Virus record (IMG/VR): IMGVR_UViG_2695420914_000005
From: a virus
Taxonomy: Duplodnaviria; Heunggongvirae; Uroviricota; Caudoviricetes
Length of the DNA stretch: 64,000 nucleotides
Reading direction: 5' to 3' (one strand)
Shown: piece by piece, positions 24,901 to 60,900 of the stretch
Position numbering within the stretch: position 1 is the first letter of the stretch
How the letters are laid out: each line of letters starts with the position of its first letter
Program-made: the position numbers

Positions 24901-27900
24901 ACAGACGGCAAACCTTTCGCGCCAACATACTATCGCTGCGAACTGGATGACCGTCTGGTGGGCGTCGTGGTTATGGCTTACCCGAAACTTCTGCTGGCAC
25001 CTCGCCATCGCATGTTTCCTAAGTTGAAACCAACCACCAATACCACCGTGGCTAACCAGTACTGGGGCCGGTACGTGAATAACAACTTTGCGGTGATCAG
25101 CCGCTCAGTTGTGGATACTCAGTACCGTGGCGTAGGCGTCTCTTATCGAATGATTAACCTGGTTAGCAGGATGCATGACCGGCCAATCATTGAGATCCAG
25201 TCATCGATGAGCAAATACAATCCCTTCGCCATGAAAGCAGGGTTTAAGTTCATCCGCCCTGAGCGACCGAAGAGCTATGAAAGTGCACTGCGTGTGTTCC
25301 AGCGCCATTTCCGCTCCGACCCGGGTGATAACGAGGCGATCGTCAAAGAGTTGTTCGCTATGAGCGAGTCTCGTCGTCGCCGTGCACTGCGTGATCTGGT
25401 GGCGGACTACCACAAGAACAGTTCCCTGGCAAAAGCTGGGCGGAATCGTGGCACGACGATTCAGGACATTGCCGACAGTCTGGTGGACGAGGCCAGCATT
25501 GTGAAGCTGCTCAAGGATATTCACAACCTGAGCTTTACGTCTCCGTTGTATGGTGTGTATCGAAACCCTGACTTTGGTCGTCGACTGCCTGACACGCTGC
25601 CACTGCTGGCATTCGACAAACAACCTTTGGATAAACCGTTAGAAATTGCTTTACCGGCATAAGGATTTGCCATGACGTTAACCGATAAACAAAAGGACAT
25701 CATCAAAACGCTCAATCTCGGTTATGAGCGAGGTCATCTACTTGACCTGGACGAATTGCTTGAAGTTTTGCCGTACAAGACAACCAAGCAAAGTATCCAG
25801 TTCTCAATTCGCGCTCTGATAAAAAAAGGGCTGGTGGAGAAAGGGCATACGCGCCAACGCAGTGACAATCGCTATCACCGCCGAACTCTTGGGTTAACCA
25901 CTTTAGGTCGAGCCAAAGCGAAGTTACTGGTGATGTAATCGGTCTGGGAGCTTATTTAAAGACCTGCTTCTGTATATATAAATAATAAGTAACTTATTAA
26001 ATATATACGGAAGCAGGCTTCGTAAGACATGCCAGACCTAATTAAACACCCCAGAAAACAAGTTGGTTAGCAGATGCAGTAAACAAGTTGTTTTAGAGCG
26101 CATGGACGCGCTCTGTGTGTTTTAGAGGGATCTATGACGGTCGAAAAAGACGAGGTAAAAACTCGCCTGACACCAGCGGAGTGGGCCGAAGCTGAAGCCA
26201 AATGGACGTCAGGCGAATATACACTCTCAAAGCTGGAGGAAGAGTACGGCATTCGTCGTGAAACACTCTCCAGACATTTCAAAAAGCGAGGATTAGAGAA
26301 AGGCGCGGACTCTGTTGGGAAGATGGTTCGTGAGTCTCTTAAATCTGACGCAGAGCTTCGCGCTAAAGCCCGTGCGGAAAAGATAGAAGAACGTCGTACA
26401 CGTTATGACGGCTGGGCGTATGCGTTGGGGCAGATGGTGATGGTCGAAGTCACTACGGCCAAACGTGAGGGTAAGCCTTTAGGGGCGATTGAGGATTCTC
26501 TCAAGAGCTTACAGAGAGCCAGTAATACCCTTGCAAAATGCTTTGAAGTTTCGTCCAAAGCATTGGGCATGGATCATGCGGAAAATGACGAGGAAGAAAT
26601 TCCGAACCTGGTATTTGGTGAGCTTACGCCTTCCCAGGTGGCGAAATTACGTCAGGAAGACGACGAGCCTGAAATCATCGATGACGAATTGCTTGAGACG
26701 TTGGAAGAAGAAGCTCTAAGCGAATTTGATGCGACAGATGATGGAAGTGAAGGGGAGGACGAATAATGGCAATCCCGTCCTCGCTCAGTCTTGTGCAACT
26801 GCATTCTGGACAGATGAAAGTCTTCCAGTCTCCGCATCGATTTAAAGTTGTTTGTGCTGGTCGACGCTGGGGAAAATCCCGGTTGTCGATCTCCACTATT
26901 ATTCGTGCGGCGGCAAAGGAAAAAAAGCAAAGGGTCTGGTATGTCGCTCCTACTTACCAGATGGCTCGCCAGATTTTGTGGGACGATCTACAGGAAGTTC
27001 TGCCTCGTAAGTGGGTTAGGAAAAAGAACGACACCACGATGACAATCGTGTTGAAGAACGGTTCGGAGATCGCCCTCAAAGGTGCTGATAAGCCTGACAC
27101 TCTGCGCGGCGTAGCGTTGCATTTTGTAGTGCTTGATGAATTTCAGGATATGAAGGCTGACACCTGGTACAAGGTGTTACGACCTACTCTTTCATCGACA
27201 CGCGGCGGTGCACTGATCATTGGTACGCCAAAAGGCTTCTCGGAATTTCACAAACTGTGGACGATAGGCCAGAACGTAGAGCTGCAAAGAAAGGGACAGT
27301 GGAAGAGCTGGCAGTTTGTAACTGCCGATTCTCCGTTTGTACCTACGGCGGAAATTGAAGCTGCTAAGAACGATATGGACCCCAAATCGTTCGCTCAGGA
27401 GTACCTGGCCAGCTTTGAGAACATGTCCGGGCGCGTTTACTACCCGTTCGATCGTAACGTGCATGTAAAACCGCTTCAGTTCAACCCTCGGTTGCCTATA
27501 TGGGTAGGGCAGGACTTCAACATTGACCCGATGTCTTCAGTAATTTTGCAACCTCAGCCAAATGGTGAGCTATGGGCAATTGATGAATTGGTGCTCTTTT
27601 CCTCTAACACGGCAGAAGTTTGTGATGAGCTTGAGAGACGCTTCTGGCGCTGGAAATCACAGGTAACGGTATTTCCAGATCCGGCAGGTGCTTATCGCCA
27701 ACATGCTCGTGGGGAGTCTGACGTAGACATATTCAAAGAGAAGGGATTCTTACGTGTCGATTATTCGAAAAAGCACCCGCCAATTGCGGATCGTGTTAAT
27801 GCTGTTAACCGAATGCTGATGTCCGCATCTGGAGATATCCGGCTGTATATCGATCCGAAGTGCAAGCATTTGATTGATTCACTGGAAAAAGTCATCTACA

Positions 27901-57900: not shown

Positions 57901-60900
57901 ATATTTCGTTCTATGAAAGCTATTCGTAGTTAAGCTCACCGAACAGACTGAACATCAAGTCACCATCCAAAATTTCAAAGGGCAACTCGACATACTCATC
58001 CTTATGTCTCGGAATTGCGTTGCCGTCGTTAGGGGCATTCTTGGTATAACCTTTTACATGTTTACCGTTTTCTTTTGTATACGGCAGCACGACAATTCGA
58101 CCGTGATTTTTTGAAATGATAGTTCCTTCTTTCCAGAGCGTATTGCCTCTTGAGGTGGTTTCGCTTTCGCTAGCAACTTTAACACTCCAACCTACCTGAT
58201 TTTTGTCCTCAAACCAGAAAACAAAGTTGCCAACAACCAGTACCTTTTGCCCATTCCTGAGAGCTTCATCCAGCATTCTTTTTACGCTGGCGAGTTGCAG
58301 TAACCGGTTAGCACGCGGCAGAAGCATTGAGCGAATAGTCGCTTTTGTTTTTCCCCAATGTGCAGCACCTGATAAACCAAAACCTCTGGCTATGCGTTCT
58401 TGGTAGCAGATCTTCGCTGTCTTAGCTTTGTTGTTATATGAACATTCCCAAGTGTTAGGAGCAACGAGTTGAAGTGAAACTTGGAATTTGGGAAGAAAAA
58501 CAAAATGTAAGTAAGGCATCTCGCTTAGCACGTCAAAAAGGGGTTGACGCAAAGTTTCGTAATCTGGGTTAATTATTAACTCATTTAATGTCACTCGCGG
58601 ATCGTTGGCGTGTGCCTTAATTGCTTCGTTGAGCATTATATGCTCTTCATCCATGAGACGTGATTTGGCTTTGAGTGCTTTGTCAACTTTCAAACGCAAT
58701 GACTTCTTTTGAAACATAGATAGAGGAAGTTTTTCAATGTCAAAGCTCACGTTTTTATTCAGCTCTAATGCCGCTTTTCTTGCTTCAGGATAGTTATCGT
58801 AGTCGTCATCAAAAGCGTGGTTTGGCATACCACGATCAACATATCGCCGATACCAAGCAAGGGTTCCATCATTACGGAGTTTCAGACAGAACATCGACCA
58901 TTTATTCCGTTCATATTTAGGCTGAGGCCAAAAAGCCAGTTCGGGAAGGCCATATCCTGGAAGTCTATTCATGCGCATGGTGACAATATCCACGAGGCTA
59001 AAACACTGATTCTAACATGATCTCCCTTGATAAATCTGTCAATGACATAGCATCTGGGGTTGGAGTCAAATTATGTTGTTCTTGGTATCCATTAGGAGCC
59101 TGTTTCTGTATATAAATAATAAGTAACTTATTAAATATATACGGAAGCAGGTCTTTTAAAAGACACCACCAGAACAACTCCCTTCCGTTTTCACTTCCAA
59201 AAACTGCCACCAGTCGCTATCATCCGCTCATTGTGATAAGTAAGTAACTACCTACCGGGTGAGCCACATGAGCCAAATCTTTTTCGATACCATCGACAAC
59301 GACCAGTACGACTTCATGACAGAGTGGAATACCGCTGTTATGGACAAGTGGGTCGCTGAAAACATTGGTTTGTCGCGCTGTAAAGATGAGGCTGAACTCT
59401 TCGAGACGAAGTGGTTTGATTACCGCGACATGCATCCTCTTATGGCCACCTGTCTGTTTACGGAGGCATACAAACGTCAGTACTCAAATATCATGCTGAC
59501 GCACGGTCGCGAACACTTTGAAACAGCTCCGTTCACCACCGGGTTAAAACGCCTGCCTTATCAGGAGTTGTCGACTGCCAATAAAACGTCTCTATGGAAA
59601 GCACGCCAGTTTGCTGACCGCTATTGCTGCTCATACGACTACTTTATCTCCACCGTTCTTTCCGCAGCTGCACGACGGCTGTGGGACAAGCTGCCGCGCC
59701 CACAGCATTTATGGCAGCCAGAACTGATTGAGATATTTGAAGAGAAATTAGCCAGACGCGCAACAACCCGTCTGGATGACTCTCTGGTTAGCTTTAAGCA
59801 TATGGGAGACATGCAGTTCAACCCGATTCAGGAAAGCTATTTTGAGTGGATTCTGGAGCGTTTGCGCACCATCCCTCGCAGCAAGCGCATACGCGCAATT
59901 TTCTCCGCTATCTGGCTAATGGAAATCGTTCCAGAGCGCCTTATTTCCGCCCACTTTCCAGAAGAACTGGAAGAAGCACGGCGGTTTATTGATCCCCTAT
60001 CTAATTAACTAATACTAGAAAACAATTTGTTTAAAAAACAAAGGAAAGCACATGACCGAACTTTGCCATACAGGACGCGGGCTGTCCGAAGAGTTTGATG
60101 AAGATTTCCAGAACAGACTGACGGCATATTTTTGTCGTGATCACGAGTTTCTTACTCGTGCGGGAGATCTGGTTGTGCCTAGCCAGTTTGCCAATGCGGC
60201 CAATGCCATATTGGTTAATATGGTTTCGGGCTATTACCGTATGTACAAGAGCGCGCCCTCTTCATCTGCAATTCTGGATATGCTTAAGCGTGCGAAACGC
60301 GATAAGACTATCCGTGAGGAACTATTCGCCGATGTTGTTGCTGCGTTTAAGCGCATTCTTGCAGAAAAATTGTCCGATACCTCGTACATGGTTGACCAGG
60401 TATCAACCTTCGCAAAAAGTGTAGCGTTTGATGATGCTCTGATTAAGGCTGCTGAACTGAAAGAGAAAGGCGACTTTCAGGGGGCGATGGCAATCATGGC
60501 CAAGGTTCAGCAGATTGGATCGAACGAAGCGACCGGAATCTATGACTACTACACCTCCGCAAGTGAGCGATTGAAAGCGCGTGAATATGAGGCTTCAGAG
60601 GAGTATGTACCAAACAGTATTACAACTGGACTCCCTCTTCTCGATAGGTTGCTGTACCAAAAAGGCTGGGCAAAGCGCGAAATGGTGCTCTTCATGGGGT
60701 TCGCTAAATCCGGTAAATCGACCGCAATGGGTGAGTTTTCCATAAACGCAACGCTTGCTGGCTACAATGTTCTGTATCTCTCGCTGGAGGTTCACACCAC
60801 CATTTTATCCGACCGTTTTGATGCAAGATTGTCGGAGACAGAAATGTCCAAGCTGGTGGAACGGCGCGATGAGGTTCATCGTAAGTTGGCAGAGTTGGGA

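Follow-up and report, generated by a model that had tools for sequence, protein, structure and literature searches.

Two hairpin elements in a phage-plasmid window

The stretch of DNA analysed here is the 64,000-nucleotide IMG/VR record IMGVR_UViG_2695420914_000005 (referred to as the window, one strand, 5' to 3'), which derives from a tailed phage (Caudoviricetes) and carries two near-identical palindromic elements. A preliminary description had named as candidates for their role a packaging-related site, a recombination or resolution site, or a strong bidirectional terminator or insulator. A 2.2-kb stretch of the window is 100% identical to the Escherichia coli plasmid pERB3f3 (NZ_MW590712.1, reverse strand), a circular plasmid of 110,850 bp with blaCTX-M-15. 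Around both elements the window matches SSU5-like phage-plasmids, namely the Escherichia phages CMS-2020a, PhiR41_1, and Cyrano, Salmonella phage SSU5, and Klebsiella relatives, and its gene content tracks the annotation of Cyrano and SSU5. The two copies and their parts are located as follows:

25941..26038, + strand: extended hairpin of copy 1, made up of the outer box GGTCTGGG (25941-25948), a spacer, the inner palindrome, a spacer, and the outer box CCAGACC (26032-26038)
25963..26017, + strand: inner palindrome of copy 1 (55 nt), CCTGCTTC-T-GTATATATAAATAATAAGT-A-ACTTATTAAATATATAC-G-GAAGCAGG, with the 3' tail CTTCGTAAGA, which is not U-rich
59075..59178, + strand: extended hairpin of copy 2, made up of the outer box GTTGTTCTTGG (59075-59085), the inner palindrome, a T-tail, and the outer box CCAGAACAAC (59169-59178)
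59099..59151, + strand: inner palindrome of copy 2 (53 nt), CCTGTTTC-T-GTATATAAATAATAAGT-A-ACTTATTAAATATATAC-G-GAAGCAGG
59152..59157, + strand: T-rich tail TCTTTT, directly 3' of the copy 2 stem

The genes on either side of the two copies are:

22518-25938, + strand: operon of two paralogous ParB_N proteins, an ABC-type ATPase, two proteins of 84 aa and 299 aa (the latter ATPase-like), and a putative winged helix-turn-helix (wHTH) protein of 88 aa; kept in SSU5; stops at copy 1
25672..25938, + strand: 88-aa gene (phrog_900; weak winged-helix matches), the last gene of this operon, with its stop codon directly before copy 1
26134..26766, + strand: terS-like gene (210 aa; small terminase by the Cyrano annotation), opening the late operon 116 nt 3' of copy 1
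56832..57859, + strand: parA (222 aa, type Ib-like) and its 119-aa partner; in Cyrano the parA operon extends as far as copy 2; in the window a hairpin of its own follows it (57865-57902)
57920..58993, - strand: 357-aa accessory gene (phrog_22329), filling a variable cassette slot left of copy 2
59259..60008, + strand: 249-aa gene (phrog_2500; Cyrano orthologue CYRAN_31), 107 nt 3' of copy 2, opening the replication module and followed by a DnaB-like helicase and a primase

Downstream of terS follow, in this order, terL, the genes for portal, capsid, tail, and lysis, a small region of cassettes, and finally parA with its 119-aa partner. The Pfam, NCBIfam, and PDB searches gave no informative match for the 249-aa, 357-aa, 299-aa, and 210-aa (terS-like) proteins.

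Both copies follow the same general plan, which consists of an outer box TCTGG, the arm CCTGCTTC-Y-GTATATA, a variable AT-rich centre, the arm TATATAC-R-GAAGCAGG, a tail, and an outer box CCAGAC. The stem begins with an 8-bp GC-rich clamp (CCTGCTTC/GAAGCAGG), passes through the Y/R position, which is usually T opposite G, and continues with GTATATA paired to TATATAC. Clamp and GTATA/TATAC together give ~17 contiguous pairs, above which the AT-rich top contains a 2x2 internal loop (A.A) and closes with an apex of 3 nt. The complementary outer boxes lie ~15 nt outside each arm (GGTCTGG/CCAGACC in copy 1, GTTGTTCTTGG/CCAGAACAAC in copy 2) and were kept in 93% of distinct contexts versus 27% in shuffled flanks; when they are included the predicted helix extends to ~45 bp, and the T-tail sits in the spacer that separates the inner stem from the outer one.

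The 111-nt RNAs of copy 1 and copy 2 were predicted to fold with -48.4 kcal/mol (z -10.4) and -47.8 kcal/mol (z -10.6), respectively, and for both window copies the + strand RNA folded ~5-7 kcal/mol better than the - strand RNA. The inner parts folded as DNA reached -15.2 kcal/mol (z -9) for copy 1 and -12.9 kcal/mol (z -7.8) for copy 2. Averaged over 115 nt, the fold of copy 1 had -48.5 kcal/mol, as compared to -35.5 for copy 2 and -38.4 for a third copy that lies outside the window. A stable stem-loop with a G+C-rich base, as is characteristic of intrinsic terminators, is present, and the predicted folds also fit a near-continuous double-stranded RNA (dsRNA) of at least ~20 bp with an extended helix in read-through RNA only, as in hairpins of the RNase III or sib type. 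Searches against Rfam 15 gave no family match at the gathering score anywhere in the window, copy 1 yielding only sub-threshold miRNA-hairpin noise. A simple terminator scanner flagged none of the copies, since stems this long and imperfect fall outside its limits for loop and stem.

The 46-nt core quoted in the preliminary description matched exactly at 59106-59151 and, with 2 mismatches that stem from an extra TA in the left arm, at 25972-26017, while 100 dinucleotide shuffles gave 0 matches, which confirmed the existence of two near-identical elements. Their spacing of 33,134 nt agreed with the ~33 kb given, and the gene map bore out the upstream positions stated for them relative to terS and the replication genes. 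The exact inner palindromes are those listed above rather than 25953-26010 and 59096-59152, and the size of ~55 bp applies to the inner palindrome and not to the whole unit. The arms had been called perfect, which they are not: a T.G mismatch at arm position 9, the 2x2 A.A internal loop, a C5>T change in copy 2, and differences in TA-repeat length interrupt or unbalance them.

Distribution and conservation of the element

The complete pERB3f3 plasmid contains a third copy (copy 3) ~44 kb past copy 2, between a Dam methylase gene and a small open reading frame (ORF), with the same arms as copies 1 and 2 and a different AT-rich centre; no isolated half-sites were found elsewhere on this plasmid. 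Going around the circle, the spacings are 33.1, 44.4, and 33.3 kb. In SSU5, copy 1 is at the junction of the record ends, and the other two copies follow SSU5_037 (at 33458-33513) and the methyltransferase gene SSU5_088 (at 78304-78360). The count of two copies previously reported is accordingly right within the window, the complete plasmid and SSU5 having three each. In IMG/VR, copy 1 preceded terS in 74 of the 74 terS loci with enough flank and copy 2 preceded the 249-aa gene in 78 of 78, giving 152 loci in all for these two copies; copy 3 was recovered in 30 loci. Copy 1 is also present on Yersinia pestis pMT1 and on Kluyvera plasmids.

Among 5,426 complete E. coli genomes, 260 (~5%) contained the element, with 2-6 matching places per carrying genome (both strands counted). 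Since 1041 of the 1043 matching places were on plasmids, the element is specific to the SSU5-type phage-plasmid lineage and is no host repeat; the many chromosomal copies typical of repetitive extragenic palindromic (REP) sequences and bacterial interspersed mosaic elements (BIME), enterobacterial repetitive intergenic consensus (ERIC) sequences, or miniature inverted-repeat transposable elements (MITE) were not found. A selfish or neutral palindromic repeat of the MITE or REP kind, spread to three intergenic sites and functionless, would have the look of a nested ~100-bp inverted-repeat unit with conserved termini, three dispersed intergenic copies, and TA-slippage polymorphism. We nonetheless regard this explanation as very unlikely, given that the matches are on plasmids and not on host chromosomes, that the three copies and their orthologous positions are fixed and the element is present in 152 of 152 loci across genera, that the arms are better conserved than the neighbouring intergenic DNA, and that neither a transposase nor a target-site duplication was recognised. 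The copies were likewise rejected as attL/attR sites of an integrated element, as there are three of them and the phage-plasmid backbone flanks both sides in all relatives.

Relatives with a TerL 58-82% identical (Morganella, Xenorhabdus, Photobacterium, and others) did not have the GC-clamped palindrome upstream of terS; the spacers of these distant relatives are instead AT-rich, some with a TAAGT...ACTTA palindrome upstream of terS. This distribution bears on the proposal of a packaging site (cos, pac, or terminase accessory) at copy 1, which would make copies 2 and 3 secondary sites or decoys. Copy 1, 116 nt upstream of terS, is in the classical place of cos or pac, and the SSU5 reference record (NC_018843.1) was opened inside it, 9 nt right of its centre. 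However, the SSU5 ends rejoin to an intact element with zero bases duplicated or lost, as expected of a circular assembly opened at a hairpin that is hard to sequence, and other assemblies break inside copy 2, where two or more contigs from metagenomes or isolates have their ends (IMG/VR loci L092 and L096). The Cyrano record follows the SSU5 arrangement, and PhiR41_1, which was propagated on K-12, was deposited as a circle starting elsewhere. Furthermore, a packaging site should be unique, whereas there are three copies per genome with only copy 1 near terS; TerL is of the Terminase_6N / P74-26 / T4-like type and not of the lambda or HK97 cos type; and Morganella and Xenorhabdus, whose TerL is 82% identical, do without the palindrome upstream of terS. 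No positive evidence for packaging emerged, and we give this explanation hardly any credence. No description of the element or of the SSU5 virion termini was found in the searchable literature.

Over 63 distinct element sequences the arms are almost invariant and far better conserved than the adjoining intergenic DNA. The centre, in contrast, differs between copies and lineages (although those of copies 1 and 2 are identical in the E. coli type), the loop nucleotide is free (A, G, C, or T), TA slippage moves the inner length between 51 and 57 nt, and the centre is now and then inverted, as in copy 2 of Cyrano, where the element is intact. Such variation in the AT-rich centre and loop is tolerated, as would be expected of the top of a hairpin. 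All relatives sampled have a T-rich tail at copy 2 (nearly always TCTTTT, rarely TCATTT, TCTGTT, or TCTTGT), even though the left flank of this copy comes in at least 14 versions; copy 3 mostly has CTGTTTT or CTTTT(T), and T-rich tails of like orientation belong to two further IMG/VR contexts (L205 and L229). The exceptions to Watson-Crick pairing are strand-biased: in 14 outer stem pairs of the 63 distinct elements, G.U on the + strand was counted 48 times versus C.A 9 times. At the Y/R pair the distinct contexts had TG (58), CG (24), TA (11), or CA (6), and one compensatory path CG>TG>TA was observed.

Alternatively, the element would be a binding or cruciform site at the DNA level, with four boxes (TCTGG, CCTGCTTC, GAAGCAGG, and CCAGA) that surround a meltable AT-rich centre and are bound by a phage protein. 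Such a site could be an origin of lytic replication, one of several dispersed centromeres used by the type Ib ParA system or the ParB_N proteins, or an organiser of nucleoprotein. The arms and boxes hardly covary and are identical among the three paralogues and in E. coli, Salmonella, Klebsiella, Yersinia, and Kluyvera, the boxes are ~21 bp or about two helical turns apart, and a GC clamp with an AT-rich centre favours cruciform extrusion. The location is suggestive as well, with copy 2 just upstream of the helicase/primase module and copy 1 just downstream of two ParB_N genes, and a search beside parA/parAB found no obvious centromere repeats. Dispersed palindromic centromeres are known from N15, and SPP1 and herpes simplex virus 1 (HSV-1) have several origins.

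As an origin, the element has to compete with a plasmid replicon that lies far from all three copies: a 364-aa Rep-type gene with iteron arrays on both sides (at least 15 iterons, GTATGCTGTCAGCGGT; pERB3f3 record 1-1650 and 110,700-110,850), outside the window. SSU5 has the same layout (SSU5_069; 58,800-61,100) with iterons of a different sequence, CTCACTACAGTGGATAG. The cumulative GC skew has no inflection at any copy; a replication origin inferred from composition was rejected too, as the skew of the whole plasmid is monotonic and the real Rep/iteron region is elsewhere. Regarding a centromere, known sites of the ParB family are compact palindromes of 13-16 bp, whereas the element has 53-57 nt (~100 nt with the outer boxes) and a variable centre; the N15 centromeres and the KorB OB operators of RK2, as known from the literature, resemble it in being several palindrome copies around a par-carrying plasmid-type replicon but are compact and bound by ParB-family proteins, unlike an element of 55-100 bp with a variable AT-rich centre, oriented T-tails, and a sense-strand wobble bias. 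Copy 1 is also kept by pMT1, which we take to use a P1-type partition system. Isolated half-sites do not occur elsewhere, an arm spacing that TA slippage varies from 51 to 57 nt is awkward for a dimer on both arms, and the sense-strand G.U bias and orientation-specific T-tails are unexpected for a double-stranded site. We consider a DNA-level site possible but unlikely.

More specific DNA motifs were rejected. A T4-late-type promoter was considered since TATAAATA occurs on the plasmid + strand only in the three elements, but its orientation is not essential, because the centre of Cyrano copy 2 is flipped and the element is kept (a gp55-like factor was not sought). The half-sites CTGTATAT...ATATACAG of a LexA box occur only in some variants and are 39-41 bp apart, as compared to a box of 16 bp. 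A core site of a tyrosine recombinase (lox-, dif-, or att-like) has two inverted arms of 11-13 bp around a crossover spacer of 6-8 bp and usually adjoins the recombinase gene, whereas the arms are ~30 bp apart and the integrase gene (pERB3f3 record 16544-17647) is ~11 kb away from copy 2 (at ~28,400). The arms CTTC(N)GTATA...TATAC(N)GAAG do resemble those of loxP (ATAACTTCGTATA / TATACGAAGTTAT) from P1, which according to the literature is also a phage-plasmid; loxP, however, has an 8-bp spacer, three direct copies would fragment the genome, and no rearrangements were found, so that the resemblance is treated as coincidental. The proposed role as a recombination or resolution site thus appears unlikely, notwithstanding the coincidence of copy 2 with a mosaic breakpoint that is described below. 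Among the 152 loci no inversion or excision products between copies were seen and the arrangement was the same throughout, only the AT-rich centre being occasionally flipped.

Operon ends, expression across copy 2, and a putative terminator function

All three copies in SSU5 begin 5-25 nt past the stop codon of a + strand gene and ~100-200 nt before the next gene. The same co-oriented position after a stop codon is found for copies 1 and 3 in pERB3f3 (copy 1 begins 3 nt past the stop codon of the + strand gene upstream in the window) and for copy 2 in Cyrano. Nearly all genes of the plasmid are on one strand, and the three copies divide the genome into a late and partition module, a replication and nucleotide-metabolism module, and an accessory module. 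With three copies splitting the circle in this way, and a copy-to-gene arrangement that is constant in the 152 loci, the earlier view of two copies bracketing the late, lysis, and partition genes as a functional pair is not supported.

Expression data across copy 2 were available from RNA sequencing (RNA-seq) of Cyrano in strain LF82 (PMC9928086, S1 Table). Upstream of copy 2, parA, CYRAN_29, and CYRAN_30 had log2(FPKM+5) values (FPKM, fragments per kilobase per million mapped reads) of 5.2-10.8 in all conditions, and CYRAN_31, the first gene past copy 2, was at or near the floor with log2 values of 2.3-4.2 (e.g., 10.42 -> 2.56; PMC9928086). At the level of genes, expression thus drops at least 100-fold across copy 2 (PMC9928086), and CYRAN_31 is silent in lysogens. 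The 193-nt spacer of Cyrano had no hairpin or terminator candidate besides copy 2 itself (flipped centre, tail TCTTTTAAAG).

Two other hairpins lie close to the copies:

26094..26125, + strand: canonical terminator-like hairpin with T-run, TAGAGCGCATGGACGCGCTCTG plus TGTGTTTTAG, between AAACAAGTTGTTT motifs and the start of terS
57865-57902: candidate bidirectional terminator, 13-bp inverted repeat ATCTCTAAGGCTG/CAGCCTTAGAAAT, between the convergent parB-like and 357-aa genes

The second was probably brought in as a bidirectional terminator with the cassette, and the parA operon has this hairpin of its own in the window because the inserted cassette gene converges on the operon. In other relatives the slot left of copy 2 is filled differently: among 731 PLSDB plasmids with homology to the par/copy 2 region it held the 357-aa gene, a DUF2971 gene, or others, and in SSU5 and Cyrano the slot gene is on the + strand.

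Another explanation takes the three copies to be primarily recombination linkers, i.e., short homologies that promote module or cassette exchange between co-infecting phage-plasmids, with terminator activity being secondary. BLAST homology to three of the four E. coli phages, namely CMS-2020a, PhiR41_1, and Cyrano, restarts at window positions ~59098-59099 (59091 for Cyrano), ~16-24 nt inside the extended copy 2, the conserved outer left box, which BLAST misses, marking the true left edge of the element, and at least 14 left-flank contexts at copy 2 each have different cassette genes. The left flank of copy 1 is the reverse complement of the right flank of copy 2, the right spacer of copy 1 in Klebsiella resembles the mirrored left spacer of SSU5, which are signs that arms were swapped, flipped centres in some relatives and the shared centres of copies 1 and 2 would fit, and the phage encodes its own recombinase and exonuclease. 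Then again, only copy 2 is a mosaic boundary, copies 1 and 3 being conserved on both flanks; a shuffling system would hardly make do with three sites, all relatives examined (152 loci) have kept the same copy-to-gene arrangement, and T-tails and strand bias are left unexplained. Linkage of modules as the primary function is therefore decidedly unlikely in our view, whereas as an evolutionary side effect at copy 2 it is real.

We favour, with somewhat more confidence than doubt, the interpretation of the element as a lineage-specific RNA-level hairpin of ~100 nt, present in three paralogous copies, that acts as a sense-oriented terminator or insulator at the module borders of SSU5-type phage-plasmids. 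Of the candidates in the preliminary description, the terminator or insulator is the one favoured by the position after genes, the tails of copies 2 and 3, the G.U bias, and the drop across copy 2, but not its bidirectionality, as the element looks unidirectional on the sense strand. The element is best grouped with the terminator or processing hairpins that phages use repeatedly where modules meet, in a form confined to this lineage.

Several observations weigh against this interpretation. In no lineage does the tail of copy 1 contain a U-tract (CTTCG, TTCTG, or CTCTC), so that this copy is not a canonical intrinsic terminator. The insertion of a cassette in reverse orientation has left copy 2 of the window without a + strand gene in front of it. 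The RNA-seq data place the end of an operon at copy 2 at gene level and not as a mapped 3' end, and they say nothing on copies 1 and 3 because the genes upstream of these are near background in lysogens. RNAalifold returned 9 consensus pairs, mostly invariant and with a single double change, and formal covariation is almost absent; because most pairs are invariant, the stem rests on conservation and wobble polarity and not on compensatory evolution. There are uncompensated changes in the left arm of copy 1 (CCTGCGTC and CCTGCATC), and some variants of copy 3 fold better on the - strand. Finally, the identity of arms and outer boxes between paralogues and across genera goes beyond what a generic terminator needs, and hints at recognition by a sequence-specific factor or at gene conversion.

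Known hairpin systems match the element in part. Like intrinsic terminators, it has a GC-clamped stem and a T/U-rich tail (copies 2 and 3), lies behind the last gene of an operon, and is followed by a collapse of expression (copy 2 of Cyrano). Unlike them, it has a stem of 17 perfect pairs with an imperfect AT-rich top, AT-rich and up to ~45 bp long with the outer boxes; one and the same sequence recurs in three places and is kept from genus to genus; and copy 1 is without the U-tract. The retroregulator tI/sib of phage lambda is a terminator nested in an RNase III hairpin. On the lambda side, which is taken from the literature, the likeness is in the nested layout, with an inner U-tailed hairpin and a helix that a distal box (here CCAGAC) lengthens in read-through RNA; the element differs by occupying three sites instead of one, and by having no sequence similarity to it, and its sib-like processing is a prediction from folds. 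The cassettes known as PeSL, i.e., promoter-early stem-loop units, promote cassette exchange in T4-type phages. According to the literature these and the RNase III sites of T7 are, like the element, repeated conserved stem-loops at gene or module borders and mosaic breakpoints (copy 2), but the element has only three copies, is without a built-in sigma-70 promoter (none was found inside or beside it), and resides in a phage-plasmid and not in a virulent phage.

In the mechanism that we propose, transcription of the upstream operon would allow the inner stem of 17 bp, clamped by G+C at its base and AT-rich at its top, to fold, and at copies 2 and 3 the adjoining U-rich tail would then release the transcript in the manner of an intrinsic terminator. 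This release may account for the drop across copy 2 and would shield the next module (late, replication, or accessory genes) from read-through. In RNA that reads through, the outer CCAGAC box would be added, and the resulting dsRNA helix of ~45 bp would be a plausible RNase III substrate. Because copy 1 is without a U-tract and has the longest helix, it may be a processing or 3'-stabilising hairpin, or otherwise a pause site, and the hairpin at 26094-26125 would terminate transcription before terS. As the three copies share identical arms, which are short homologies, modules and cassettes would also be exchanged at them.

Two more elaborate versions, in which the hairpins would be gates recognised by their sequence and not passive terminators, appear rather unlikely. 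In the first, a phage factor would read the invariant arms and boxes and switch read-through, timing the modules by sib-like retroregulation or antitermination. In the second, cruciforms or lagging-strand hairpins would be cut by a phage SbcCD/Mre11-Rad50-like nuclease and thereby start recombination-dependent replication and concatemer formation after induction. If a specific factor does read the arms, or if an SbcCD-like nuclease does target the hairpins, the element would be all the more interesting.

Neighbouring motifs, cargo, and implications

Copy 1 is followed by two AAACAAGTTGTTT-type motifs and then by the hairpin at 26094-26125 just before terS, which suggests late-operon control by attenuation or antitermination. 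Elsewhere in the genome, ordinary terminator hairpins precede the same AAACAAnTTGTTT motif as follows copy 1, an analogy that speaks for the terminator interpretation. This 13-bp palindrome, which is its own reverse complement, occurred 14 times with at most 1 mismatch, as compared to 0.5 expected, at positions 2519, 7572, 11510, 11561, 13001, 14184, 14561, 15045, 15948, 16712, 26056, 26081, 56784, and 60020. Most sites are intergenic and just upstream of operons, including those of terS, parA, and the helicase gene, and the motif is probably an operator or promoter element of a phage regulator. A 64-nt repeated cassette is found in the early/accessory region at 2495-2558, 7548-7611, 11486-11549, and 15924-15987; the two best cassettes consist of a GC-rich terminator hairpin of short length (AAGGCCA...TGGCCTT) and, after it, AAACAATTTGTTTTCTACCTTTTCTTATTTGTGAAAATAA, resembling a PeSL-like terminator-plus-promoter unit.

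Another palindrome, TAAGTNNNNACTTA (14 bp), occurs 5 times in the window versus 0.08 expected (15449, 22504, 29527, 35022, and 48419), mostly in intergenic regions. The whole plasmid has 7 more TAAGT-N(0-5)-ACTTA sites, including the centres of copies 1 and 2 (TAAGTAACTTA, a shorter-spaced version), and in Photobacterium, Chitinibacter, and Piscirickettsiaceae TAAGT..ACTT(A/G) palindromes are located just upstream of terS. Palindromes of this type may be the site of a second regulator.

One further gene adjoins the operon upstream of copy 1:

20894-22453, - strand: DEAD/UvsW-like helicase gene, divergent from the ParB_N operon

At its left end (115-990; ORF listed as 55-990) the window begins inside an ISEcp1-blaCTX-M-15 insertion, and the phage-plasmid therefore carries an extended-spectrum beta-lactamase (ESBL) gene. 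Two genes of chromosomal type, apbC (8134-9234, - strand) and metG for methionyl-tRNA synthetase (9263-11425, + strand), are also present, as they are in Cyrano (CYRAN_99 and CYRAN_100). The gene for a 1385-aa tail fibre contains degenerate 120-nt repeats at 50529-52066, 61-75% identical and in 4-5 copies, which probably correspond to repeated structural domains.

SSU5-type phage-plasmids are common in Enterobacteriaceae and are also carriers of resistance genes, here ISEcp1-blaCTX-M-15. Given that the element breaks assemblies, it could be mistaken for a genome terminus in records of this lineage. The slot left of copy 2 is a place of insertion for accessory cassettes, and the element itself is a compact candidate for a strong natural terminator or insulator. 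The division of the genome by three such hairpins would provide a handle on the silence of lytic genes in the plasmid state.

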